A stretch of DNA of 64,000 bases from Candidatus Palauibacter sp. (lineage in GTDB: Bacteria > Gemmatimonadota > Gemmatimonadetes > Palauibacterales > Palauibacteraceae), in assembly GCF_965216145.1 (NCBI RefSeq), contig NZ_OZ244149.1, positions 417,011-481,010 on the forward strand, read 5' to 3'. The position numbers and the translations under genes were made by a program. The first letter of the stretch is position 1, and each line of letters begins with the position of its first letter. The notes beneath the pieces were generated by a model. The model was not told where the DNA came from. It was given only the letters and a program-made list of their open reading frames with translations, and made no database searches. Positions 4,518-59,587 of this stretch are shown in pieces.

Positions 4518-5354
4518 CTATCCGAGGCTGTCGCGCAGGATTCTCTCCAATTCGTCAACTACGGCCCGCATGTGCAGCTTGTCTTCCGGGCGCTCTTCAC
4601 TATTGCGTATCGTATCGACGACATTTGACCATGTCTTATGGATTTCGGGCAATCTGAGCATCTTGGGATCCGCATTTAGTGCTACGTGTAGCAGCTCTTC
4701 CGCGCGAGTAAGGTCGAAAGCGTCATACGCATTAATTTTTTTGATACAGGCAAGATGCTCATTGGGGAAGTCCAACATCTGATAAAGATTATCAATATCT
4801 CTTGACAGATAAGCAGTATCCTGAAGAGCGCTTACAACTTGCTCTGCGATGTCCGACATGTTTGACTGGTGTCGGATCGCGATGGCCTCCTCAACGGCGT
4901 TGGCCAAATTGTCCCGAATCCACTCGTACCGTTCTTCGCTACTTCGCCCGGGAGGATCGTAACACTTCACCACACGGGAAAGATCTTCATGTGCGCCGAC
5001 AGCGATCCTGAACGGATTCGGACCCCTTGCGGCCACATGTCCATCCCGGTTTCGCAGGCCGTGGATGCGAATCCCGACGACGCCCATCCCATCCTTCCAG
5101 GACTTCTCAATCTCGTATTCGACCCATGGCCGTCCGGTGGTGTGGGTTCCCACCAAGACCACCGTGCAGGAGCGTGCTCGCATCTGGTCGACGATCCACG
5201 CCCTGATGGCCGGAGCACCCTGACGCGTCAATTCCTCCCAACTGGTATCCGTCGCCGGTCTGTTTCCCTCAACCACGCCGATGTTCCGAACCGTCGCCGC
5301 TCGCCAGCGGTCGGTTTCGTAGTTAAAGCTGTAGAACACCCTTCGCTTTAGCAT
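4518..5354 (-). CDS. TIR-like domain protein (DUF1863 / ThsB-like) with AT-rich C-terminal helical extension
   Basis: Start set at the internal ATG (MLKRRVFYSFNYETDRW...), residue 94 of ORF 4518..5633. N-terminal VFYSFNYETD ... CTVVLVGTHTTGRPWVEYEIEKSW ... GVVGIRIHGL fits the flavodoxin-like TIR/DUF1863 pattern. Confidence 0.65.
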   Translation of the reverse strand: MLKRRVFYSFNYETDRWRAATVRNIGVVEGNRPATDTSWEELTRQGAPAIRAWIVDQMRARSCTVVLVGTHTTGRPWVEYEIEKSWKDGMGVVGIRIHGLRNRDGHVAARGPNPFRIAVGAHEDLSRVVKCYDPPGRSSEERYEWIRDNLANAVEEAIAIRHQSNMSDIAEQVVSALQDTAYLSRDIDNLYQMLDFPNEHLACIKKINAYDAFDLTRAEELLHVALNADPKMLRLPEIHKTWSNVVDTIRNSEERPEDKLHMRAVVDELERILRDSLG

Positions 5355-5454
5355 GCCGTTCCTCCACGGCTCCCATCCACTATCACCGGCGACCGCGGGG
5401 GCGACATCGGTCGGAGGAGCGAGAACGAGATAAGATGCAACTCGGACGCCAGTT

Positions 5455-8190
5455 CTATCGCGCGGGCCGGACGCCTCCCTTGCGGCGCAGACCGTAGCCG
5501 ATCCGGAAGACATCCGGGACATCGACGCGGTCATCCCGGAGGCGACGGAAGATACCCAGGGACTCCAAAGCCTCGCGGAGTTCATCGTGGTCATAATCCA
5601 TATGCGGCAGCGGGAGCCGCCACCCGTCTCCACTACCCGCCTGGGCCAGCTGCTTCAAGACGCGTCGCTCACGCCACAGATGAACGACTTCCTCGAAATC
5701 ACACGGAACAACCCGTCCGGAGAGCGGTTGCATCAGCACCTGCACCCATGGATAATCCTCCTGTAGCTCCCGAACCCGCGTCGTGGACGCCTCCCGCACA
5801 CCGTGCTTGATGCTCTGGTAGTGAAGGGCGTAGCCATGATCCGGATGGCGTTCATGAGAATCTTCCGCCGCTGAGCGCAACGCCGTGAGAAACGAGCGCG
5901 GACTGACCTTGCCCCCGGCGTCGGCGAGGTGGTTTGGGATCCATGTGTACGGGTATCCGCGTCTCCGATCAGTGCCCATCCACGGGCCCGCGAATTCGTG
6001 GAACTTGTCGCGCTGGGCCCCCTCGTCGCGGTCGAGCGGATACGGCACTTCGAAGCGCGGTGCCGTATCGTCATCAGTCGTGGACCAGTGTCCGTCCTGC
6101 AAGCGCGGACGGACGAGGTCACCTCGTGGACCGTTGGCCAGGGAATGCCAAAGCAGGCCGTAGAGATCCCGGCGCGGCCAGCTGAGATCGACAGCCGACG
6201 ACAACACTTTCGAAGCGTCCGGAAAGTCCGTGATCCGCCGCTCGTCCACCTGATCAGTTCTCAGGAAGATCTTCGCGCGCAAGCGGCGATACGGACGCAT
6301 GTCGAGGGCGTGCTCCAGCAATCCTCGAATCAGCTCGGACGCAGTCTGCCAGTCGGAGGCGGCGCGATCCAGAGCGTCAAATAGCACGACGGAATACACA
6401 CCCCTTGAGTCCAGTTCGACATCGATAGTCCGCAGGAGGTCGAGGACGACACTCGGGTCATCGAGGACGTACCTCGCGCGTTCAAGCCACGTATCGAACT
6501 GTCGTATCGGATGGTCGGCACCCGCCACCGCGCACGCATGCACGGTTCGCCAGATGATCCGGGGCTCCACGTTGTTGGCGATTAGTCGACAAAGATCGTC
6601 CCTCACCGGATAATCGCCCGGCACATTGGAGACACCGAATCCCGACTCGACGACTGAATCTTCGTTCAAAGGAAAGCCCCGCACCTCTCGCCCCAGCGAG
6701 CGACGAACCTCGGGACTCTGCAGGGCGCGCCACCAGAATGTCTTGCCTGAGCCGCGCATTCCAGTGACGAGCATCGTGTCGGGGTGCATGGCCTTTCGAT
6801 GCGAAGGCGGGATGTACACGGCCGACGACGGGACGGGCTCGCCGTAGCTCGCCGGATCGGGCAGCTCGCTGAACGCGAGGCGCACGGTCTCGGCCCGGGT
6901 CGGGTCGCCGACTGGCTCGGGGCTTCGGTAGAGCAGGTCGAACCGTCGGAGGAACTCCCTGTACGCTTGGGCCACCGTCGTTCGCTCCAGCTTCCGGAGA
7001 GAAATTCCGGCCGCGAACCCTCGTGTCCAATGGATCACCAGCGGATCATGCTGCCCCTCCTCGGACGACAGGTCAGCCGACACCCCCTCATCCGTTTCCC
7101 CGAGATCCACGATCTCGTCCTGCAGGCGATCCCGAAGGAGGATTCGTGCGTTTTCCCGGAACCGTTCGACGTACCGCTCGGTATCCGTCTCGGGCGTCAA
7201 GGCGGAGACGATCGACAGGCGTTCGCGTATCCGGGATGCCATGTTTGTGCGCGCCCAATGATCGAACAGAATCCCGTAGTCCGTCCAATGGCTGTCGGAG
7301 TCGACGGCGAACAGCATCACCTCCGCGTCCAGATCCGTCACCGTTGCCGCCGCAATATCGTGGAGGCCGCTCCGGCTCTCGATGAGCACGACGGTCGGGC
7401 TGAACTCCGTTTCCAGGTTCACCACCAACCGCTTCAAGCGACTCGTCCAAGGATCGATCGCCGTATCCATGTACGTGCGCCCGAGCTTTGCGAGGTATTC
7501 CCCCGGCTTCCTGCCGTGCGCCGGCGCCACCAGCACACGTCCCGGCAAGTCATGAGCCCAAGAGGGCTTCCCCGTCATCCGGCTCACGACATGATCTCCC
7601 TGTCCGACCAATTCTTCGACGAACCAGTCCGTGACGCCGAACTCCGGCTCGGCCGGGGGTTCCAACATGGCCGACGCCAGCCCGGGCGACTCTAGGTCCA
7701 AATCGATGACAAGCACATCCTCCGCCTGCCGGGCGAGGTGCCACGCCAACACCGCCGCCGTCGTGCTGCGCCCCACCCCACCCTTCACCGAGTATAGGAC
7801 GTAGCGGGCCGGGTGGTGTTCGCTCGACGGGTCCGGGACTGTCCACCATTCTTGGCCGACGACGAGCCGGTCGGCCCAATGAACGCCGGGCCTGATCAAC
7901 TGCGCCGTGTCGCCCAGCGTCTCCAGCAACGCGGGATCTACGAAGAGCACTGTCTTCTGCGGCAGGTGTCCGTGGGCCGCGAGCGCATCCGCCAAGCGAC
8001 TCGCCAAGCGGCTCAGCACTTCGCCGAGTTCGCGATCATCCTGGGCTGCTTCCGATACCGATATGCCGACCTTGCCGAAGAGGTTGCGCACGAGGTATAG
8101 CGGCGGTGCGTCGGCTGGGATCTCCATCCCTTCCAGCACCTCCGATACGAGCCGCCGCACTTGGTCGAACGGAACGAAGGTGTCGCTCAT
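5455..8190 (-). CDS. Dual-NTPase protein: ParA/MinD-like domain with deviant Walker A (KGGVGRST) plus a second P-loop NTPase (GMRGSGKT)
   Basis: Start at internal ATG (MSDTFVPF...), which overlaps the stop of the upstream 140-aa gene (ATGA). YSVKGGVGRSTTAAV followed by DVLVIDLDLESPG is ParA/Soj-like; LVTGMRGSGKTFWWRAL with later VVLFDALD gives a second Walker A/B pair. Confidence 0.7.
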   Translation of the reverse strand: MSDTFVPFDQVRRLVSEVLEGMEIPADAPPLYLVRNLFGKVGISVSEAAQDDRELGEVLSRLASRLADALAAHGHLPQKTVLFVDPALLETLGDTAQLIRPGVHWADRLVVGQEWWTVPDPSSEHHPARYVLYSVKGGVGRSTTAAVLAWHLARQAEDVLVIDLDLESPGLASAMLEPPAEPEFGVTDWFVEELVGQGDHVVSRMTGKPSWAHDLPGRVLVAPAHGRKPGEYLAKLGRTYMDTAIDPWTSRLKRLVVNLETEFSPTVVLIESRSGLHDIAAATVTDLDAEVMLFAVDSDSHWTDYGILFDHWARTNMASRIRERLSIVSALTPETDTERYVERFRENARILLRDRLQDEIVDLGETDEGVSADLSSEEGQHDPLVIHWTRGFAAGISLRKLERTTVAQAYREFLRRFDLLYRSPEPVGDPTRAETVRLAFSELPDPASYGEPVPSSAVYIPPSHRKAMHPDTMLVTGMRGSGKTFWWRALQSPEVRRSLGREVRGFPLNEDSVVESGFGVSNVPGDYPVRDDLCRLIANNVEPRIIWRTVHACAVAGADHPIRQFDTWLERARYVLDDPSVVLDLLRTIDVELDSRGVYSVVLFDALDRAASDWQTASELIRGLLEHALDMRPYRRLRAKIFLRTDQVDERRITDFPDASKVLSSAVDLSWPRRDLYGLLWHSLANGPRGDLVRPRLQDGHWSTTDDDTAPRFEVPYPLDRDEGAQRDKFHEFAGPWMGTDRRRGYPYTWIPNHLADAGGKVSPRSFLTALRSAAEDSHERHPDHGYALHYQSIKHGVREASTTRVRELQEDYPWVQVLMQPLSGRVVPCDFEEVVHLWRERRVLKQLAQAGSGDGWRLPLPHMDYDHDELREALESLGIFRRLRDDRVDVPDVFRIGYGLRRKGGVRPAR

Positions 8191-8609
8191 GGCGTCCCTC
8201 CCTGCGCAGCCCATTGAACCATCAGCCGAACCTCTGACGCCGCCCGACGATGCGGCTCGACGTAGGCCTCATCGAAGTTCCCCCGGCTGGCGTAGCGGTT
8301 ATGGTGCGACCAATCGGAGAACGGTTCCCCGCCCGGAAGCTGCGCAAGCAGCGCGCCCGCGCCTCGCTGCGCCGCGAACTGGTCGAACACGTTCCACAGT
8401 TCCTCGATATGTACGCGATGCGCCCGCTCTTCCGGCGCGCCGTCGGGGCGAACGAGCATACCAAGATTCTGCATGAGCGACTTCAGGCCGCACTCGGCGC
8501 TGAACCCGTACAACTGATCCGCGTTGGCCCAGCGACGCGCGGCCGACAGGTACTCGGCATCTTCCCAGTGTCGCTCGTGCGCGTCCTCGAAGTCCGCCGC
8601 GTAGATCAT
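8187..8609 (-). CDS. Hypothetical protein (140 aa), translationally coupled to the dual-NTPase gene
   Basis: Clean ORF starting MIYAADFEDAHERH; stop overlaps the downstream start. N-terminus resembles the methyltransferase C-terminal tail and the 65-aa orphan ORF. Contains RAHRVH, a weak R-x4-H HEPN-like hint only. Confidence 0.55.
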   Translation of the reverse strand: MIYAADFEDAHERHWEDAEYLSAARRWANADQLYGFSAECGLKSLMQNLGMLVRPDGAPEERAHRVHIEELWNVFDQFAAQRGAGALLAQLPGGEPFSDWSHHNRYASRGNFDEAYVEPHRRAASEVRLMVQWAAQGGTP

Positions 8610-8803
8610 GCTAGCTCATGGCCCCGCGCAGCGCGCGTCGTGTTCAGATCCATCAGACGAGCGAGCACCTCATTGCGCACGTCGCCCGGCGGTCGGGTCA
8701 ATAGGGTGTAAGTGCCATGAGGCGGCGACCTTCCGTGGCGCTCATGAGCGTCCGTGAAGTCAGCCGGATGGATCACGAGTCCCCGGCAAGAATAGATCGG
8801 CAA
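8606..8803 (-). pseudogene. Orphan 65-codon ORF: probable remnant of a gene 3' end, homologous to the methyltransferase C-terminus
   Basis: Translation ...HPADFTDAHERHGRSPPHGTYTLLTRPPGDVRNEVLARLMDLN aligns with the methyltransferase C-terminus ...HETDEDERRRARAPHRYRWPNEVRDEVLARLMALN. Alternative start, no upstream context; lies in the 418-nt gap after the truncated ATPase. Confidence 0.3.
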
Positions 8804-9027
8804 TCCGCATGTTCACCCTCCATGGTCGGCTCGTCGCCGTCTGCGGTGCGGTTTCGGCGGTCATGCATGATACTGTGGCGCTCCAAGTTAGACGCCGGAG
8901 CGGTTTCTTGCTCCACCGCAGCCTCGCACGGCTACTGCGGGACATCGCAAGAGGTCGTGTCGATCGACCCTCTTCCGAGAGCTCCGCGGCGGAACTCCGT
9001 CCGGTGAGCGTCCGTTTCCTAAGGGGG

Positions 9028-9822
9028 TCACGGCTGTTCTTGAGGGGGTGTAGCGCTTTCGGCAGCACAGGCGATGGCGTCAAGCTTCTCGCTCACTTCC
9101 GGATCGACATCCGCAGGCGGCATGTGGCCGACGAGCCGGTAGAAGTTGCCCTTCGGCATGAGGTTTGGCAGGCCCAGCTTCGAGAAGTACGCGGTGAGCA
9201 GCGGCTTCAGGAACTCCGTGCTCACCTTCAGGTCGGCGCCCCACGGCGACGGCTTCCCGAGACGCCGCACGTTCACGGCGCCCTCGTCGAGCCGGGTCTC
9301 GGCCGCAGCCAGCCCCGACATCGGCGGCAGGAAGGCCATCCTCACGCTCCCCGCCTCGTCGGGGACGGGCATGCGGTCGGGAACGCGATCCTCCGTCAAC
9401 CGCAGCGGACGGCAGTACACCGACTCGTCGTTCGCGTAATCGAACTCGAGCCCGCACGTCCAGGCACGCCCGCGGGTCACCCCCTCGACGATGATGTCGA
9501 TGCGGATGTTCCTCGTTTGCTGTTTACCGCCTACGTACCGCACATCTCGCACCCGAAGATCCCGCCACGCGAGCTTAACGCTCGGAATTGGAATGGACAC
9601 GAGATCGCGACGGTTGATGGTCACGCCCGGGCGTTTCTCGGGCGTTCTCTTGCCGGCCCGCTTGGCGTTCCACTGGGTCAGCCCCGTGTGCCACAGGGCG
9701 AGCGCCTGCATGGCGGAGGTCTTGCCCGAATTGTTGGGTCCGATGAAGACGACCGGGCTCCCGAGCTCGACTTCGACGTCTTCGAAGCGCTTGAATCTTC
9801 GAATGGTCAGCTTTGTCAGCAT
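9028..9822 (-). CDS. AAA ATPase N-terminal fragment (AAA_15/AAA_21-like, as in GajA/PtuA/OLD-family ATPases), probably truncated
   Basis: Start at internal ATG (MLTKLTIRRFKRFEDVEVELGSPVVFIGPNNSGKTSAMQAL). Walker A present, but no Walker B, signature or H-loop before the stop at 264 aa. Confidence 0.5.
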   Translation of the reverse strand: MLTKLTIRRFKRFEDVEVELGSPVVFIGPNNSGKTSAMQALALWHTGLTQWNAKRAGKRTPEKRPGVTINRRDLVSIPIPSVKLAWRDLRVRDVRYVGGKQQTRNIRIDIIVEGVTRGRAWTCGLEFDYANDESVYCRPLRLTEDRVPDRMPVPDEAGSVRMAFLPPMSGLAAAETRLDEGAVNVRRLGKPSPWGADLKVSTEFLKPLLTAYFSKLGLPNLMPKGNFYRLVGHMPPADVDPEVSEKLDAIACAAESATPPQEQP

Positions 9823-53745: not shown

Positions 53746-53896
53746 CCCGCTTCCCGCGCCGCTTCTTCCGGCCACCTCTCCCCGCGGCGGGATTGGCGGT
53801 ACGTCGCGGGCGGACGTATGGTCCCGGCGTGAGCCCTGACACCCGCGCGGGCCTTGCCCCGGGGTGTTTATTCAACCCGGTCCCGGACGCAATCGA

Positions 53897-54406
53897 ATGA
53901 GCGTTCCGCTGAGAGAACTGCCCGACACCGCCCGTCTCTGGATCTACGGGACGGACCGTCCGCTGTCGGACGGGGAGCGCGAGGCGCTCGTGGGCGACCT
54001 GCGCGCGTTCGTCGACGTGTGGACGGCCCACGGGGCGGCGCTCCGCGCCGGCGTGGAGTGGGTCGAGGGGCGCTTCGCGGTCATCGCCGTGGACGAGGCT
54101 TCGGCGCCGGCCTCGGGGTGCTCGATCGATGCCATGGTGCGGCGGCTCGCCGCGCTCGAGGCGCGGCTCGCCTGCTCGCTGCTCGACGGCACGCGCGTGT
54201 TTTATCGCGGCGAGTCCGGCGAGATCGTGGGGTGCGCCCGGGCCGCGTTCCGGGCCCGGGCGGCGGCCGGCCAGGTCGACGATTCGACCGCGGTCTTCGA
54301 TCCCACCATCGAGACGCTCGCGGAACTGCGTGCGGGCGACCTGGAGCGGCCGGCCTCCCGCTCCTGGCATCGACGGCTCGTGGACCGGCCGGACGGACGG
54401 TCCTGA
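53897..54406 (+). CDS. Hypothetical protein
   Basis: Start at internal ATG (MSVPLRELPD...); clean ORF directly upstream of the patatin-like gene; no family recognised. Confidence 0.45.
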   Translation: MSVPLRELPDTARLWIYGTDRPLSDGEREALVGDLRAFVDVWTAHGAALRAGVEWVEGRFAVIAVDEASAPASGCSIDAMVRRLAALEARLACSLLDGTRVFYRGESGEIVGCARAAFRARAAAGQVDDSTAVFDPTIETLAELRAGDLERPASRSWHRRLVDRPDGRS

Positions 54407-54419
54407 TCCGGGGACCGGT

Positions 54420-55580
54420 GTGACGGGAGGTCCGGGGGGGAGCGCACCGGGCTCGGCGGAGGGGAAGCTGGCCTTCGCCCTCTCCGGGGGAGGTGCCCGG
54501 GCCGCCTACCAGACCGGAGTCCTGTGCCACATCGGCGAGCGGCTGCCCAGGCTGCAGATCCCCCTTCTCACCGGCGTCTCGGCGGGCGCGATCAACGTCG
54601 GGTTCCTCGCCTCCTATCGTGGCGACTTCCGGCAGGCGACGCGGGCCTTGAAGCGGCGCTGGCTGTCGCTGACGACCGAGGAAGTGCTGCGGACGAACCC
54701 GACTTCGCTCCTGAAGGTGGGGATCCGGCTCGGCGGTTCGCTTCTCGGGGGCGGGATCGGACTGAGTCCGCAGTTTCGGAGCCTCGTGGACACCGCGCCG
54801 CTGCGTGAGTTCATCGAGCGCAACCTCGTCGTCGGGGCCATCGGGGAGCGGATAGCGGCGGGCTACGTCGAGGCGATCGGTCTCACGGCGATGTCCTACC
54901 AGACGGGGCGTACCGTGCTCTTCCTCCAGGGGGAATCGAGCGCGCGGCCGTGGCCCGCCACCGCGCGCAACCGGCTCGTGCGGACCGACATCTCGGTCGA
55001 CCACATCCTCGCCTCCGCGTCGATCCCGCTCGTGTTCCCAGCCGTCAAACTGGGGCAGCAGTACTACGGGGACGGCAGCTTTCGCACCGCGGCGCCGCTG
55101 GCGCCCGCCATCCACATGGGCGCGGATCGCATCTTCACGATTTCGGCGCGTTATCGGCGCTCGGAACTGGAGACGAGGCGACCGGACATGGCCGGCTACC
55201 CGCCCCCGGCGCGCGTGCTCGGCCTGCTTCTCAACTCGGTCTTTCTCGACACACTCGACTGGGACGCGGCGGCGTTACGCAGAATCAATCATCTCATCGA
55301 CAGCCTTCCGCCCGAAGTGGCGGAGGAGCAGGGTCTGCGCCACGTCGACCTGCTCATCCTCAGACCCTCCCGCGACATCGGGAGACTCGCACGCCAGTTC
55401 GAGATCGAACTGCCCCCGGCGCTGAGGTTCCTGGTGCGCGGCCTCGGAACGCCACGGGCGAAGAACGCGGATTTCCTCAGCTATCTCCTGTTCGAGAGCG
55501 AATACGTCCGAGCGCTCGTCGAACTCGGGGAAGCCGACGCGGAATCGAACTGGGACCGCATCGAGTCGTTCCTCACCTGA
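54420..55580 (+). CDS. Patatin-like phospholipase
   Basis: LSGGGARAAYQTG (oxyanion Gly-rich), GVSAGA (GxSxG serine), YYGDGS (catalytic Asp of the DG dyad). Start is a GTG by residue arithmetic, 14 nt after the upstream stop. Confidence 0.7.
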   Translation: MTGGPGGSAPGSAEGKLAFALSGGGARAAYQTGVLCHIGERLPRLQIPLLTGVSAGAINVGFLASYRGDFRQATRALKRRWLSLTTEEVLRTNPTSLLKVGIRLGGSLLGGGIGLSPQFRSLVDTAPLREFIERNLVVGAIGERIAAGYVEAIGLTAMSYQTGRTVLFLQGESSARPWPATARNRLVRTDISVDHILASASIPLVFPAVKLGQQYYGDGSFRTAAPLAPAIHMGADRIFTISARYRRSELETRRPDMAGYPPPARVLGLLLNSVFLDTLDWDAAALRRINHLIDSLPPEVAEEQGLRHVDLLILRPSRDIGRLARQFEIELPPALRFLVRGLGTPRAKNADFLSYLLFESEYVRALVELGEADAESNWDRIESFLT

Positions 55581-55588
55581 CCGTGCAC

Positions 55589-56698
55589 GTGAAGATCGTC
55601 CATTTCGCCGACCTTCACCTTGACTCTCCCTTCGCCTGGTGCGAGGCGAGCGGGGACGTGGCCCGTCGGCGGCGCGAGGCGCTGCGCGAGACGCTCCTCG
55701 CGATCACGGCTCTTGCGAGGGATACAGATGCCGACGCGCTCCTCTGCGGCGGCGATCTGTACGAACACGACCGCGTGACGCTGGACACGGAGAAGTTCCT
55801 CCGGCAGACGTTCGCCGGTCTCGACCCGATGCCCGTCTACATCGCTCCGGGCAATCACGACTGGTACGGGCCGACGAGCCTCTATGCGACGGAGGAGTGG
55901 AGCAGCAACGTCCACATCTTTCGCGAAGCGGTTCTGCGCCCCGTCCCGGTCGCACCCGGGATCACGCTCTGGGGCGGCGCGCACTGCGCCCCCGCGAATA
56001 CGGACAACTTTCTCGGCGGCGGCTTCCGGGTGGAGGGGCCGGGCGTCCATCTCGCGCTCTTCCACGGCGCGGAACAGTCGTGGCTCGCCGCGCAGGGAGA
56101 GGGGAAGGTGCCGCACGCCCCCTTCGACACGGCGGACATCCGGACGGCGGGCCTCGACCACGCGTTCCTCGGCCACTATCACCGGCCCGCGGACGGCGCA
56201 CACCACACCTATCCGGGCAATCCCGATCCCCTGCAGTTCGGAGAGGACGGGGAGCGCGGGGCCGTCGTGGCGACGTTCACGGCGGAGGGCGCGGTGGAGT
56301 GCGAACGTCGTGTCGTCGCGATGACGCACGTCCACGACCTCGCACTCGACGTCACGGAGTTCACGAGCCGACAGCAGATTCGAGACACCCTGCGCGAGGT
56401 CGCCGCGGGCCGGGGCGGTCTCGCGCGCCTTACGGTGACCGGGGACCTCGAACCCTCGCTCGATCTTCAGGAGGAAACGATCCGGGAACAGTTGCTCGAG
56501 ACCTTCGAGGCCGTCCAGATCCGAAAATCGGGTCTGCACCTGGCGTACGACCTGGATCAGATCCGCGAGGAACCCACCGTGCGGGGCCAGTTCGTGAGAG
56601 ATGTGATCGGGGCGGATCTGCCGGAGGACGAACGACGCCGCGTGTTGAGGATGGGACTCCGAGCCCTCGACGGGCGGGACGATCTGGAGGTGCTCTGA
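55589..56698 (+). CDS. Metallophosphoesterase, SbcD/Mre11-like nuclease subunit
   Basis: KIVHFADLHLD, GGDLYEH, IAPGNHD, FHGA, GHYHR are calcineurin-like phosphoesterase motifs. GTG start just after the patatin stop. Confidence 0.7.
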   Translation: MKIVHFADLHLDSPFAWCEASGDVARRRREALRETLLAITALARDTDADALLCGGDLYEHDRVTLDTEKFLRQTFAGLDPMPVYIAPGNHDWYGPTSLYATEEWSSNVHIFREAVLRPVPVAPGITLWGGAHCAPANTDNFLGGGFRVEGPGVHLALFHGAEQSWLAAQGEGKVPHAPFDTADIRTAGLDHAFLGHYHRPADGAHHTYPGNPDPLQFGEDGERGAVVATFTAEGAVECERRVVAMTHVHDLALDVTEFTSRQQIRDTLREVAAGRGGLARLTVTGDLEPSLDLQEETIREQLLETFEAVQIRKSGLHLAYDLDQIREEPTVRGQFVRDVIGADLPEDERRRVLRMGLRALDGRDDLEVL

Positions 56699-56701
56699 GC
56701 C

Positions 56702-59587
56702 GTGCGTTTCGAGTCTGTCGTAGCGTACGCCTTCGGCCCCCTGCGGGACGAGAGCCTCGAGTTCGCGCCGGGCATGAACGTCGTCTACGGTCCCAACGAG
56801 GCGGGGAAATCCTCCTGGCACGCCGCGGTCTACGCCGGCCTGTGCGGGATGCGGAGGCGGCGGGGAATGCCGCGCAGGGACGAGAAGGTCTTCGCGGAAC
56901 GGCACAGGCCCTGGGGGGGCGACGGATGGGAGGTGGGGGCCGTCATCGCGCTGGAGGACGGACGGCGCGTCGAGTTGCGGCATGATCTCGCGGGCAGGGT
57001 CGACAGCAGCGCGCGGGATGCGAGCGTCGCGGGCCGCGACTACTCGAGCGAGATCATCCACGAGGGCGCGCCCGATGGCTCGCGCTGGCTGGGACTCAAC
57101 CGCCGCTCGTTCCTTCACACGGCCTGTGTACGGCAGGCGGACATCCTCAGGGTGCGGGACGACCCCCTGTCCCTTCAGGAGGACATGCAGCGCGCCGCTG
57201 CCACGGCCGGGGCGGATGCGACGGCCGCCGCGGCGCTTCAGCGGCTCGATGACTACCTGAGGGACCGGGTCGGCTCGACACGGGCGCCGACGAAGCCGCT
57301 GGTGAGGACCGAACGGGAAACCGACGACGCGCGCGCGGCGCTCGAGACCGCGCAGGAGGCCCATCGCGACTACCTGCGGCGGCGTGTGCAGGTGGAGGAT
57401 CAGGAGCAAGCGGCCAGGGAGGCGGAACTGCGGGTCGAGGCCATGCACGCCGCGCTCGCCGATGCTGAAGCGAACGCGCTCGCCGAACGGCTGGGAGACG
57501 CGCGAGCGCTCGATGAACAGTTTCCGGAGGGCGTGCCTCACCCGCTGCCCGATGGCGGCGTACTGCACAGGAGAGTCATCGAAACGCTGACGACGTGGAG
57601 TAACCGGCCGGTATTGCAGGAGCTGGCGGGGCCCTCGGCGCAGGAACTGGCGGAGAGGATCAACCGGGCCCACCGCGGGCTCCTCGCGGCACGCGCCGCG
57701 GTGGCGGAAGCCGGGGCGCTCGACATCGAGCGCCGCGTCGCGCGGGCACATGAGCTGGGGGCTCTCTTCCCGGCGGGCGCTCCGCGCACCTCCGCCGCCG
57801 AGGAAGCGCACGCGAGCCTGGTTCGGGACGCGCTCAACGCCTGGGAGTCGCTACCATCCCTCCGGGAGCCGGACGGGCCGGACGTCGAGCAACTCGAATT
57901 CAGCCTGGCTGATTTCGACAAGAAGCGTCGGGGGGGCGGCGGCGCATCGGGGGCGCGACGATCCGGATCACATCTCCTCGCCTGCGGTGTCGCTGCAGTG
58001 GTGGGGATCGTCGCGGCCCTGCTGCTGCCCGATTTGCGGGTCGTGGGTCTGACCCTGGCCGCCACCGGGGCCGCGGCGTTCCTCTGGCTCCGGTTCGTGG
58101 ACTCGCGGCCCGGCGGGGCGGACATCGCTCTCGTGCTCGAGACGCAACGCGACGCCATGGCGCGCAGTCTCGCGGTGCGCCGCACCGAACAGGCTGGCTA
58201 CGAAGCCGCACTCGAGCGCAGAGCCGCGCTGATCGAGCAACTGGTCGACAACGGCGCGCTCGACAACGGCGCGGGATCGGAGCCGGAGACGGTCGTCCGA
58301 AGGCTGCGCGAGTGGGAGGCGTCGTGGCGCGATGAGAAGCTGGCGCGTGCCCAGTTGGGCCTCGAGTGGGACGAGCTTCAGGGACTGCTGGGCGGGTCGT
58401 CGCTGGAGGAACTCGTCGCGGAGGCCGGTCGACTCCGGGAAGAAGCCGATGGCCTCAGCGCATCCGCGGACGAATCCCGGCTGGACGAACCGCGGGCACG
58501 AAGCGTATCCGCGCGTGAACTCGCCGAGATGGAGCAGCACGTCGACGACGAACTCCGCGGGTGGCAGGAAGAACGAGCCGAACGCCTCGCGGCGGAAGCC
58601 CGGCACCGCCTGGACACCGAGCGGGTCGCCGCCGCCACGGAGACGCTGCGAGCGACCGCCGCGCGGATCGGCGTGACGGGCGACGACCCGGAAGAGCTGG
58701 CCGACGCGCTCGAGGTGTGGCGGGCAGGCCGGGAACGAGCCCTGGGGGAAGCCGGACGGCGCAGTGAATCGTGGGACCGGCTACAGCAGCTGCTCGGCGA
58801 CCGAACGCTGGATGAGTTCGCCGCGGAGGCGGAGCGGCTCCGCGCCCGCGCGGACCGGCTGGCGCACGAGGTGGGGCCGCGCGCGCTTGCCATGGCCCGC
58901 GAAAGCGGGCCCACGGCCGAGAGACTGGAAGCTCTTCGTTCGACAGCGGAGGCCGCGCGCTCGGAGGTGGACAGAGCGCACGGCCAGCTCACGGAACGCG
59001 AGCAGAACCTCCCCCGCGTGGCGGACGCCGAAGACGCTCTGGCTGCGGTCGAGCGCGAACAGGCCCGCGTTGGGCGACTCAAGCGCACACTGGACAGCAC
59101 GATCGCCTTCCTGCGGGAGGCGGAGGAACGCGTCCTCCGTGACATCGCGCCGATCCTCACGAGCACGATCCTCGAATGGCTTCCCGGGGTGACGGAAGGA
59201 CGCTATACGGGCTGTCGCATCGACCCCGAGTCCCTGCTCGTGGAGGTCCGCACGAACCGGGGACGCTGGCGTGCCGCCGAGCTGCTGTCGCACGGGACGG
59301 CCGAGCAGATCTATCTGCTCCTCAGGTTCGCACTCTCCCGCCATCTCACCGGGACGGGCGAGACCTGTCCTCTGATCCTCGACGATGTCGTGGGCGCGTC
59401 GGACGCGGAACGCAAGGAGGCGATGCTCCGGACGCTGCGCGCGGTCGGGGAATCGACCCAGGTCATCCTCTTCACCCATGAGGACGATGTCCGGGACTGG
59501 GCCAGGCGGAACCTCCACGCCCCGCGCAACCGTCTAATCGAACTCGCGGGACCCCGGCCGCACGCCGAGGAGCGGCCGGCTACCTGA
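56702..59587 (+). CDS. SbcC/Rad50-like (YhaN-like) AAA ATPase with long coiled coil
   Basis: N-terminal Walker A (VVYGPNEAGKSS), C-terminal AEQIYLLLRFAL (signature-like), LILDDV (Walker B), FTHE (H-loop). Central hydrophobic hairpin is unusual for SbcC. Confidence 0.7.
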   Translation: MRFESVVAYAFGPLRDESLEFAPGMNVVYGPNEAGKSSWHAAVYAGLCGMRRRRGMPRRDEKVFAERHRPWGGDGWEVGAVIALEDGRRVELRHDLAGRVDSSARDASVAGRDYSSEIIHEGAPDGSRWLGLNRRSFLHTACVRQADILRVRDDPLSLQEDMQRAAATAGADATAAAALQRLDDYLRDRVGSTRAPTKPLVRTERETDDARAALETAQEAHRDYLRRRVQVEDQEQAAREAELRVEAMHAALADAEANALAERLGDARALDEQFPEGVPHPLPDGGVLHRRVIETLTTWSNRPVLQELAGPSAQELAERINRAHRGLLAARAAVAEAGALDIERRVARAHELGALFPAGAPRTSAAEEAHASLVRDALNAWESLPSLREPDGPDVEQLEFSLADFDKKRRGGGGASGARRSGSHLLACGVAAVVGIVAALLLPDLRVVGLTLAATGAAAFLWLRFVDSRPGGADIALVLETQRDAMARSLAVRRTEQAGYEAALERRAALIEQLVDNGALDNGAGSEPETVVRRLREWEASWRDEKLARAQLGLEWDELQGLLGGSSLEELVAEAGRLREEADGLSASADESRLDEPRARSVSARELAEMEQHVDDELRGWQEERAERLAAEARHRLDTERVAAATETLRATAARIGVTGDDPEELADALEVWRAGRERALGEAGRRSESWDRLQQLLGDRTLDEFAAEAERLRARADRLAHEVGPRALAMARESGPTAERLEALRSTAEAARSEVDRAHGQLTEREQNLPRVADAEDALAAVEREQARVGRLKRTLDSTIAFLREAEERVLRDIAPILTSTILEWLPGVTEGRYTGCRIDPESLLVEVRTNRGRWRAAELLSHGTAEQIYLLLRFALSRHLTGTGETCPLILDDVVGASDAERKEAMLRTLRAVGESTQVILFTHEDDVRDWARRNLHAPRNRLIELAGPRPHAEERPAT

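Follow-up and report, generated by a model that had tools for sequence, protein, structure and literature searches.

Results

A nuclease-ATPase gene pair downstream of a patatin-like gene

The window analyzed in the present study, a stretch of 64,000 nucleotides from Candidatus Palauibacter sp. (contig NZ_OZ244149.1, positions 417,011 to 481,010), carries three co-oriented genes that encode a patatin-like phospholipase, an Mre11/SbcD-like metallophosphoesterase, and a Rad50-like ABC ATPase (Table 1). The patatin gene ends 8 nt before the start of the metallophosphoesterase gene, and the stop codon of the latter precedes the start of the ATPase gene by 3 nt. This order was named in the preliminary description, which had placed the ATPase gene behind patatin-like and SbcD-like genes, and the Pfam matches to Patatin and Metallophos bear it out. 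The metallophosphoesterase contains the motifs DLH, GD, GNHD, and GHYH, and its nearest solved relative is Mre11/SbcD of Thermotoga maritima.

Table 1. Features of the locus, with positions counted from the first letter of the window
Feature	Position	Strand	Details
Patatin-like phospholipase gene (neighbor)	54420..55580	+	Pfam Patatin, E 2.4e-23; motifs GGGAR, GVSAG
Mre11/SbcD-like metallophosphoesterase gene (YhaO/SbcF-like)	55589..56698	+	369 aa; Pfam Metallophos, E 1.3e-13
YhaN/SbcE-type Rad50-like ABC ATPase gene	56702..59587	+	961 aa; GTG start; stop codon counted in the end coordinate
Walker A, GPNEAGKS	56789..56812	+	Residues 30-37; motif scan
Gly/Arg-rich flexible linker before the hairpin	57935..57964	+	Residues 412-421; pLDDT <50; belongs to the basic N-flank KKRRGGGGASGARRSGS
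Hairpin helix 1, GSHLLACGVAAVVGIVAALL	57965..58024	+	Residues 422-441; AlphaFold2 helix H422-441
Turn, P443-D444-L445-R446	58028..58039	+	P-[DE] turn recurrent in relatives
Hairpin helix 2, VVGLTLAATGAAAFLWLRFVD	58040..58102	+	Residues 447-467; AlphaFold2 helix runs 443-467
Flexible linker after the hairpin	58097..58123	+	Residues 466-474; pLDDT <50
C-terminal ABC head motifs	59285..59479	+	Signature LSHGTAEQ (862-869), Walker B LILDD (891-895), H-loop ILFTH (922-926); motif scan

The ATPase is of the YhaN/SbcE type, a Rad50/SMC-fold ABC ATPase, and not a canonical SbcC. Its residues 1-216 match Pfam AAA_27 (PF13514) with 40.6 bits (cut-off, 22; E 2.8e-10), PF13514 is common to all listed homologs, and an SMC_N match of Pfam lies at the C-terminus. 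In contrast, the NCBIfam Rad50 equivalogs remain far below their cut-offs (PRK03918, 46 bits vs 700; Rad50_Sulf, 23 vs 1000), as does the metallophosphoesterase with respect to the SbcD equivalog, and none of the SbcC models of NCBIfam matched the ATPase at E<=0.01. The motif scan found the C..C of a CxxC zinc hook nowhere in the 961 residues, and the hook was found in no intact relative. A central C..C in one relative (L043) was considered as a zinc hook and rejected, being part of an inserted IS66-like transposase that interrupts the gene. A protein identical to the window ATPase (P0001) occurs in the public collection, and one fragment (P0273) in the 90%-identity cluster of a relative bears the IMG label "uncharacterized protein YhaN." These results agree with the earlier assignment of the gene to the YhaN type rather than to canonical SbcC.

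All motifs of the ATPase head, namely Walker A, signature, Walker B, and H-loop, are intact in the motif scan; N32, E33, G35, K36, and S37 of Walker A are invariant in alignment A1, and the residues of the other three motifs are invariant or nearly so. Between Walker A and the C-terminal motifs, residues 199 to 830 are helical in the AlphaFold2 secondary structure and form long arms. In the model, which represents a monomer without a membrane (mean pLDDT 82.8), these arms are broken up into many helices and differ in length, the N-side arm having ∼210 residues and the C-side arm ∼360. A profile search of the PDB with the ATPase retrieved Rad50 heads (Pyrococcus furiosus Rad50, E 8e-12), and Foldseek placed the Mre11-Rad50 complex 7zr1 at the top, followed by SMC5/6 and MukB. 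Internal repeats were seen by pairwise segment comparison; a blastp self-comparison gave no off-diagonal match.

A hydrophobic hairpin at the tip of the arms

The peptide singled out in the preliminary description, GSHLLACGVAAVVGIVAALLLPDLRVVGLTLAATGAAAFLWL, is residues 422-463 of the plus-strand ORF 56702-59587 (nt 57965-58090), its start having been given 2 residues (6 nt) and its end 1 nt away from these positions. It belongs to an uncharged stretch, residues 422-467, in which AlphaFold2 predicts two helices joined by the P-D-L-R turn, and comparable hydrophobicity was not found elsewhere in the 961-residue protein. AlphaFold2 confidence within the hairpin is only 57-67. Helix 2 has an aromatic/basic end, LWLRF in the window protein and LAWWWLxKRR in many relatives. 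The description of this region as two transmembrane-like helices is supported: the region looks like a membrane hairpin, with two uncharged helices of ∼20 residues, a turn of 1-4 residues, and K/R-enriched flanks. The hairpin is not, however, placed within the arm but forms the arm tip, in the position of the zinc hook. Alignment of the stretch to the zinc-hook/hinge region of canonical SbcC had been named as an observation that would refute the preliminary reading; the position fits this to the letter, but in the absence of any hook motif with which the stretch could be aligned, the reading is not refuted. Three minus-strand ORFs cover the hairpin (57538-58185, 57900-58211, and 57968-58606) and were regarded as ORFs such as arise by chance in DNA rich in G+C; family matches at both ends of the plus-strand reading frame, and homologs numbering in the hundreds, support that frame.

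The Kyte-Doolittle mean over 19 residues, for which 1.6 is the usual threshold, peaks at 2.6 in helix 1 and exceeds 1.6 in both halves of the hairpin. Apparent insertion free energies after Hessa 2005, calculated as a simple position-independent sum, were -0.63 kcal/mol (19-mer) and -2.69 kcal/mol (18-mer) for helix 1, and +2.26 kcal/mol (19-mer) and +0.23 kcal/mol (17-mer) for helix 2, which is only marginally hydrophobic. As a control, genuine transmembrane segments of the MacB/FtsX permease (same window) gave -1.4 to -0.7, while the best 19-mers outside the hairpin gave +9.3 in the ATPase, +11.7 in the metallophosphoesterase, and +5.2 in the patatin. On both scales, the values of the hairpin fall within or close to those of the MacB/FtsX transmembrane segments and far from those of the other segments of the three proteins.

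Conservation of the hairpin among relatives

Of 342 unique full-length relatives, 258 carry the hairpin, and clustering at 50% identity left 150 representatives, 139 of which retain its position and character. The hairpin lies at 0.45-0.53 of the protein length irrespective of the length of the arms, in proteins of 600-1175 aa. Across the family, its helices measure ∼21 (helix 1) and ∼20 residues (helix 2), and a median of 1 residue separates the uncharged runs. Its two flanks are enriched in K+R (3.7 and 3.45 per 15 aa vs 2.06 expected) and depleted of D+E (1.4 and 1.8 per 15 aa vs 2.46 expected). G435 in helix 1 is at least 90% conserved, Gly449 and Gly456 in helix 2 are conserved as well, and a Trp-rich belt and KRR follow helix 2 in many members. 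The helices are Ala/Gly-rich, and their family medians on the Hessa scale (helix 1, +1.9; helix 2, +3.2) are marginal for autonomous insertion. A single amphipathic helix (muH 0.6-0.8, e.g., TLFRAIRAVFAALFRLFG) takes the place of the hairpin in one clade of Chloroflexota, which is monophyletic and branches within the hairpin-bearing proteins. The family is large, with 1463 clusters at 50% identity reaching E<=1e-30; tblastn against the PLSDB plasmids gave one partial match and no Firmicutes homolog.

An uncharged run rich in Ala, Gly, Val, and Leu could also be a low-complexity accident of composition devoid of any specific role, given that the protein contains 16% Ala, 12% Leu, and 7.5% Gly and that the genome region has a G+C content of ∼70%. 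Among 5000 composition-preserving shuffles of the protein, 30 contained one window scoring as well as helix 1, but none (0/5000) contained two adjacent windows scoring as well as helix 2. In addition, position, length, turn, and flanking charge are retained across phyla in the hairpin-bearing relatives at identities down to ∼35%, and certain Gly and Pro residues are conserved. Because of these conservation data, an accident of composition is effectively refuted and its probability is close to nil. The hydrophobic two-helix hairpin is confirmed as a real and conserved feature of the family.

Gene neighborhood and the question of a defense system

In all 83 related loci examined, the ATPase gene is immediately preceded by the metallophosphoesterase gene; these loci span at least seven phyla, including Gemmatimonadota, Chloroflexota, Acidobacteriota, and Actinomycetota, and in addition Pseudomonadales and Spirochaetia. 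The patatin gene behaves differently. Whether the patatin-SbcD-ATPase order is conserved was a question of the preliminary description, and the answer is divided: the order is kept in the Palauibacter/Gemmatimonadota clade (19 of 19 loci examined), but patatin is absent beside the pair in every other locus (more than 60 loci in at least six phyla), where the neighbors are unrelated metabolic genes. The Gemmatimonadota neighborhood is wholly collinear, with MacB, a 180-aa orphan, the patatin, a pyridine-nucleotide oxidoreductase, and a downstream minus-strand ORF, which in the matching locus L001 is a CDP-alcohol phosphatidyltransferase gene, and the neighbors in these loci are 83-99% identical. 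Such collinearity and identity indicate that the adjacency of the patatin gene is inherited synteny and carries no information on function. A scan around the operon revealed a single terminator-like site, at 53851-53865 ahead of the orphan gene, and nothing resembling a promoter.

It is conceivable that the three genes compose a single module, for example a defense-like system in which a membrane-anchored DNA sensor/nuclease would be coupled to a phospholipase effector. Their common orientation, the short gaps between them, and the invariable arrangement in Gemmatimonadota would fit such a module, as would the weak PADLOC matches of the C-terminal half of the ATPase to MADS mad3 (1.2e-17) and Lamassu LmuB (1.1e-12). 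With these SMC-like defense ATPases and Wadjet JetC, the window ATPase also shares SMC-like fold matches in the PDB search. The PADLOC matches are, however, partial and limited to the generic ABC C-terminal half, the scores of the patatin and the nuclease are not significant, and the cognate partner genes of these systems (LmuA, JetABD) are lacking. The partner is an Mre11-like nuclease in every locus, and the surroundings are metabolic neighborhoods rather than defense islands. PADLOC provided no full-length model match, and no conserved co-occurrence of an effector was seen in the test for a patatin-linked or SMC-like defense system. With patatin missing outside Gemmatimonadota and its adjacency there explained by inheritance, a three-gene module is highly improbable. 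The patatin gene is probably not part of the system, and a functional link of it with the gene pair is not supported.

Discussion

The window ATPase shares with Rad50/SbcC the ABC head fold and its motifs, an antiparallel helical arm, and the two-gene arrangement with a calcineurin-like nuclease encoded upstream, and Mre11-Rad50 is its best structural match. It differs from them in its broken, asymmetric arms and, above all, in carrying a hydrophobic hairpin instead of a zinc hook at the tip. The reading that we favor, with fair though not strong confidence, is that the gene encodes the ATPase subunit of an Mre11-Rad50-like nuclease module of the two-gene YhaN/SbcE and YhaO/SbcF type, and that the arm-tip hairpin is most likely inserted into the membrane. 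The uncharged hairpin of ∼45 residues, situated where Rad50 and SbcC have the CxxC zinc hook and composed of two helices of ∼20 residues with a Pro-Asp turn, would enter the cytoplasmic membrane with both ends on the cytoplasmic side, while the flexible basic linkers would connect it to the arms. The arm tip would thereby be tethered to the membrane, and the ATPase/nuclease head might act on DNA ends in the cytoplasm. The conserved glycines of both helices probably would allow packing of one hairpin against another in the bilayer, and this packing might also provide the tip-to-tip association that is the task of the zinc hook in Rad50. We infer insertion, topology, and dimerization through the hairpin, and the role in DNA-end processing, which is likewise inferred, is carried over from SbcE/SbcF of Bacillus subtilis.

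The hairpin has the usual marks of a membrane hairpin, namely uncharged helices with a 19-residue Kyte-Doolittle mean above 1.6 joined by a short turn, and both the positive-inside flanks, enriched in K+R and depleted of D+E, and, in many members, an aromatic belt are present as well. It is most likely a membrane anchor, although the marginal helix 2, the marginal family medians, the low pLDDT of the hairpin, and the behavior of SbcE-YFP in B. subtilis count against this. A soluble role would be the obvious alternative: the arm tips might bury their hairpins in a helical bundle, a cytoplasmic substitute for the hook or hinge that dimerizes the complex without touching the membrane. The hairpin occupies exactly the site of the Rad50 zinc hook and the SMC hinge in a family that lacks CxxC, its Ala/Gly-rich helices are marginal on the Hessa scale, the conserved glycines would suit tight helix packing, and SbcE-YFP of B. 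subtilis appears as mobile foci on the nucleoid and not as a membrane stain (PMC2811018). On the other hand, at least 40 residues without a charged or strongly polar residue would be unusual in a soluble bundle, whose helices are amphipathic, and the positive-inside flanks, as well as the Trp belt and the KRR closing helix 2 in many members, likewise speak against a soluble interface. The central domain of the B. subtilis protein, expressed alone, is moreover completely insoluble (PMC2811018).

The substitute found in the Chloroflexota clade, a lone helix whose hydrophobic moment is very high, argues further against a soluble interface. A high-moment amphipathic helix is the other classic mode of membrane binding and is typical of in-plane anchors. 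The presence of this substitute therefore favors membrane association over a soluble dimerization knob, and we regard the soluble interface as unlikely, while a membrane-inserted hairpin remains our preferred reading.

The window protein belongs to a known family, and the hydrophobic, insoluble central domain of SbcE was already described in 2009 (PMC2811018). According to that report, SbcE (YhaN) of B. subtilis lacks CxxC and possesses a "unique central domain" that is hydrophobic in its first half and includes a conserved proline, the protein interacts with the SbcD-like YhaO encoded upstream, and SbcE/SbcF act in double-strand-break repair and transformation (PMC2811018). SbcE gathers at the poles of competent cells, and SbcE-YFP forms dynamic foci, often on the nucleoid, that travel from pole to pole within minutes, with no membrane signal described (PMC2811018). 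The window ATPase resembles SbcE/SbcF (Pfam AAA_27/COG4717) in its length of ∼960 aa, its SMC/Rad50-like head, its long helical arms, the absence of CxxC, and the SbcD-like metallophosphoesterase gene directly upstream. It also has a central hydrophobic domain with a proline (422-467, P443-D444), a likeness that is matched to the published description and not to the sequence of SbcE; shared family, position, and description suggest that the two domains are homologous. B. subtilis YhaN (probably UniProt O08455) is apparently annotated in UniProt as a multi-pass membrane protein. The differences are that the host belongs to Gemmatimonadota, a Gram-negative-type phylum, that the downstream gene is not yhaM, and that the 2009 report does not read the "unique central domain" as a membrane hairpin (PMC2811018). 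The statement that a membrane anchor has replaced the zinc hook was not found in the literature searched: searches on SbcE, SbcF, and membrane gave nothing beyond the 2009 paper (PMC2811018), those on zinc hook, transmembrane, and SbcC gave nothing, and those on Rv1277/Rv1278, PF13514/AAA_27, and COG4717 gave nothing relevant.

For annotation, the gene pair at 55589-59587 is better named SbcF/SbcE-like (YhaO/YhaN-like) than SbcCD, and the patatin gene should be left out of the pair. The YhaN/SbcE family, which was described as one of Gram-positive bacteria in 2009 (PMC2811018), is spread much more widely than this first range. If the hairpin is a true anchor, the family would comprise Rad50/Mre11-type machines whose arm tips are fixed to the membrane and not joined by zinc, and the picture of DNA-end tethering would change for the YhaN/SbcE family. 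Such an anchor would put the "unique central domain" described for B. subtilis SbcE, and also the polar localization of SbcE in competent cells, in a new light, and would give a simple account of both the insolubility of this domain and the polar foci. For the wider evolutionary picture, we see about even chances that a branch of the Rad50/Mre11-like nucleases, found in at least seven phyla including Gram-negative ones, swapped the zinc hook for a membrane anchor, which would be a transmembrane hairpin in most members and an in-plane amphipathic helix in the one Chloroflexota clade. These enzymes might then serve as membrane-tethered processors of DNA ends at the cell envelope, acting for example on incoming DNA or on membrane-bound ends of chromosomes.

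Identity of the ATPase and its partner

The Rad50-like ATPase encoded in the window can be assigned with high confidence, in both family and architecture, to the SbcE/YhaN-type Mre11-Rad50-like proteins. Its N-terminal P-loop domain exceeds the cut-off of the YhaN-type Pfam model AAA_27, its C-terminus matches SMC_N, and the Walker A (GPNEAGKS), signature (LSHGTAEQ), Walker B (LILDD), and H-loop (ILFTH) motifs are intact. Among the NCBIfam models, Rad50, RecF, and RecN fell far below threshold and SbcC gave no match at E ≤ 0.01, while a motif scan of the whole sequence found no CxxC. On the grounds of AAA_27, the missing CxxC, and the unmatched SbcC models, the proposal in the preliminary description that the protein is of the YhaN type rather than a canonical SbcC holds. 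A profile search of PDB sequences matched Rad50 heads, and Foldseek placed C. thermophilum Mre11-Rad50 at the top, followed by the ATPases of SMC5/6, MukB, Lamassu, and Wadjet. In IMG, one fragment of a relative's cluster is named "uncharacterized protein YhaN" and members of another cluster "exonuclease SbcC". The partner carries the metallophosphoesterase motifs DxH, GD, GNHD, and GHxH, and its closest solved relatives are T. maritima Mre11/SbcD. The ATPase belongs to a known family, for which the phylum is new.

Features of the locus and of the ATPase gene
Feature	Position (nt)	Strand	Remarks
Orphan gene	53864-54406	+	180 aa; no Pfam match
Patatin-like phospholipase gene	54420-55580		GGGAR and GVSAG motifs; ends 8 nt before metallophosphoesterase start
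Metallophosphoesterase gene (calcineurin-type)	55589-56698	+	369 aa; directly upstream of ATPase gene
ATPase gene	56702-59587	+	961 aa; GTG start
Hydrophobic peptide	57965-58090	+	residues 422-463
N-arm repeat	~57485-57646 and ~57731-57895	+	residues ~262-315 and ~344-398; 30% identity over 54 aa, E 6e-5
C-arm repeat	58271-58453 and 58679-58861	+	residues 524-584 and 660-720; 44% identity over 63 aa, E 3e-8
Long ORFs across hairpin-coding region	57538-58185, 57900-58211, 57968-58606	-

Only 3 nt separate the metallophosphoesterase stop codon from the ATPase start. Further upstream on the same strand lie genes for an outer-membrane efflux protein, an HlyD-type adaptor, a MacB/FtsX permease, and the orphan. 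The patatin and orphan genes separate this MacB/FtsX efflux cluster from the nuclease pair; a pyridine-nucleotide-disulphide oxidoreductase gene follows downstream on the opposite strand. The minus-strand ORFs are of the sort expected by chance at the G+C content of the window (~70%), and nothing in the present analysis supports them.

Distribution of the family and conservation of the gene pair

A word-indexed search gave 796 matches, and among the best 120 of these, identity to the ATPase runs from 100% to 42% and those with a named source are from Gemmatimonadota or Chloroflexota. The nearest genomes are of Candidatus Palauibacter sp. (Gemmatimonadota), with 95% ATPase identity. An exhaustive profile search collected 1463 clusters (50% identity) at E ≤ 1e-30, and of 599 stretches pattern-matched in GTDB species genomes, 566 proved to be relatives. 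The 83 loci compared here (78 kept from that scan and five from earlier look-ups) include Gemmatimonadota, Chloroflexota (Dehalococcoidia, Caldilineaceae, Chloroflexia, Tepidiformaceae), Acidobacteriota (Vicinamibacterales, Bryobacteraceae), Actinomycetota, Pseudomonadales/Azotimanducaceae, Spirochaetia, and others. Many homologue-bearing MAGs, of several phyla, have isolate names (SB06xx and jk18x bins, Plut_, RHO1) suggestive of marine sponge or coral metagenome bins (L008, L011, L013, L016, L018, L024, L037, L038, L053, L054, L056, and L081), which could reflect sampling bias or symbiont gene exchange.

In all 83 loci a metallophosphoesterase homologue runs up to the ATPase start or overlaps it, and the two genes form an obligate module. 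The partner appears split in L002/L019 (Dehalococcoidia OZ252088.1, ~4893-6001 of L002), where genes of 171 and 63 aa are called and tblastn aligns only 177 aa; the ATPase gene beside it is intact, and a frameshift or decay to a pseudogene may account for the split. Across L006-L083 the metallophosphoesterase is far more conserved (~50-67% identity between phyla) than the ATPase, whose best-segment identity drops to 34-37% in the remotest loci. Within Palauibacter, the ATPase is 58-63% identical against 83-88% for its neighbors, a much faster evolution that is probably due to the arms.

The order patatin-SbcD-ATPase, noted in the preliminary description, is present in the window, but only its SbcD-like member recurs throughout the compared loci; a patatin homologue stands upstream of the pair in the 19 Gemmatimonadota loci alone. 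These 19 are collinear (MacB, orphan, patatin, the pair, oxidoreductase, and a further minus-strand ORF downstream, which in the matching locus L001 encodes a CDP-alcohol phosphatidyltransferase), and their neighboring genes are 83-99% identical as against 58-95% for the ATPase. The arrangement of patatin and orphan is kept in Palauibacter/Gemmatimonadota only, together with the whole neighborhood (L001, L006-L018, L024, and L034). Because that neighborhood is wholly collinear, and because unrelated metabolic genes flank the pair outside Gemmatimonadota, the adjacency of patatin is a case of inherited synteny, and a functional link cannot be argued from it. PADLOC returned only partial matches to the ATPase C-terminus (mad3, LmuB), with nothing significant for the metallophosphoesterase or patatin.

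The hairpin and the arms

The hydrophobic hairpin claimed earlier is real, the original numbering being off by two residues at its start and 1 nt at its end; it lies not within the arm, however, but at the arm tip, in the place of the hook. The Kyte-Doolittle mean over 19 residues peaks at 2.6 and exceeds 1.6 in both halves. With Hessa 2005 apparent insertion free energies summed without position weighting, helix 1 gave -0.63 kcal/mol (19-mer) or -2.69 (18-mer), and helix 2 gave +2.26 (19-mer) or +0.23 (17-mer), compared with -1.4 to -0.7 for true transmembrane helices of the MacB/FtsX permease; the best segments elsewhere scored +9.3 (rest of the ATPase), +11.7 (metallophosphoesterase), and +5.2 (patatin). 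When the ATPase was shuffled, a single window matching helix 1 arose in 30 of 5000 trials and an adjacent pair in none of 5000. An AlphaFold2 model built from a 68-sequence alignment (mean pLDDT 82.8) shows two helices, 422-441 and 443-467, at moderate confidence (57-67), between linkers (412-421 and 466-474) with pLDDT < 50. The N-flank is KKRRGGGGASGARRSGS, and the C-flank starts with RFVDSRPGG.

Of 150 representatives (50% identity), 139 have a hairpin, as do 258 of 342 unique full-length sequences, and the hydrophobic element always lies at 0.45-0.53 of the length of intact ATPases, which range from 600 to 1175 aa when IS-interrupted and truncated copies are left out. Usually, uncharged runs of ~21 and ~20 residues are separated by one to four residues, often P-[DE] or [DE]-x-R. 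The 15-residue flanks hold 3.7 and 3.45 K+R, where whole-protein composition predicts 2.06, and only 1.4 and 1.8 D+E, where it predicts 2.46. In a local alignment of 58 hairpins, G435 of helix 1 is conserved, as are G449 and G456 of helix 2, seven residues apart, and in many members LAWWWLxKRR closes helix 2, so that basic residues come after an aromatic belt. A central CxxC is absent from every intact member. The family's only apparent one, in L043 (Vicinamibacterales OZ241898.1), was rejected as a hook because an IS66-like transposase with zinc-finger motifs (CPDCGG...CAQCRRR) interrupts the gene from ~codon 265, which also explains the long tblastn span (5001-9319).

Judged by AlphaFold2 secondary structure, the arms are uneven, the N-side arm having ~210 residues and the C-side arm ~360, and each contains an internal duplication (see table). 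Homologue lengths group near 600, 715-780, and 905-976 aa, and at every length the hairpin stays near the middle, which suggests that arm length alters through the paired gain or loss of modules.

Discussion

B. subtilis SbcE (YhaN), described in 2009, is a 106-kDa SMC-like protein nearest to SbcC, without CxxC, in which heptad regions of ~300 aa enclose a "unique central domain" whose first half is hydrophobic, which holds a highly conserved proline, and which was completely insoluble on over-production (PMC2811018). Its gene follows the sbcD-like yhaO, whose product, SbcF, interacts with SbcE; SbcE mutants show defects in transformation and in the repair of double-strand breaks. In competent cells SbcE-YFP collects at the poles, and in growing cells it appears as mobile foci that often lie on nucleoids (PMC2811018). 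The family was said to be Gram-positive, and the central domain was not interpreted as a membrane hairpin (PMC2811018). Compared with that published description, the ATPase of the window has every architectural feature given there for SbcE. The UniProt entry for YhaN presumably annotates two transmembrane segments.

Whether the hairpin enters the membrane has to be weighed against the main rival, a soluble role, in which it would be a hydrophobic knob for dimerization in the cytoplasm. The nucleoid-associated, mobile foci of the B. subtilis SbcE fusion (PMC2811018) count against insertion, as do the marginal Hessa values of helix 2 and of the family medians and the no more than moderate confidence with which AlphaFold2 models the hairpin. 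About a dozen Chloroflexota loci of Dehalococcoidia, Tepidiformaceae, and Caldilineaceae (L004, L005, L022, L023, L025-L029, L035-L038, and L040), however, lack the hairpin and have at its site a single, strongly amphipathic helix, e.g. GGLFATLFRAIRAVFAALFRLFG or TLFRAIRAVFAALFRLFG, with a hydrophobic moment (muH) of 0.6-0.8. Because a neighbor-joining tree of head domains groups these loci as a single clade, nested within the hairpin-bearing sequences, the hairpin looks ancestral within the loci sampled, with one exchange for an amphipathic helix. Membrane binding can be achieved interchangeably by a transmembrane hairpin or an in-plane amphipathic helix, whereas their interchange as cores of a soluble bundle is not obvious. 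The exchange is the main argument for membrane association; we consider insertion of the hairpin reasonably likely, and a soluble knob rather unlikely. L075 (Spirochaetia) has another, different single helix, hydrophobic or amphipathic.

The preliminary interpretation was essentially right, corrected for the arm-tip site and the unsupported patatin link, and with membrane insertion standing as a prediction. The ATPase and its partner are best read as an SbcF/SbcE-type Mre11-Rad50-like nuclease with, at the arm tip, a helical hairpin predicted to insert in the membrane with both ends cytoplasmic; in place of a zinc hook, this hairpin would tie the complex to the inner membrane, and its conserved glycines probably also mediate tip-to-tip association. 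The modest additions of the present analysis are that the hairpin is the rule over a very wide family including Gram-negative phyla, and that one clade has swapped it for an amphipathic helix.
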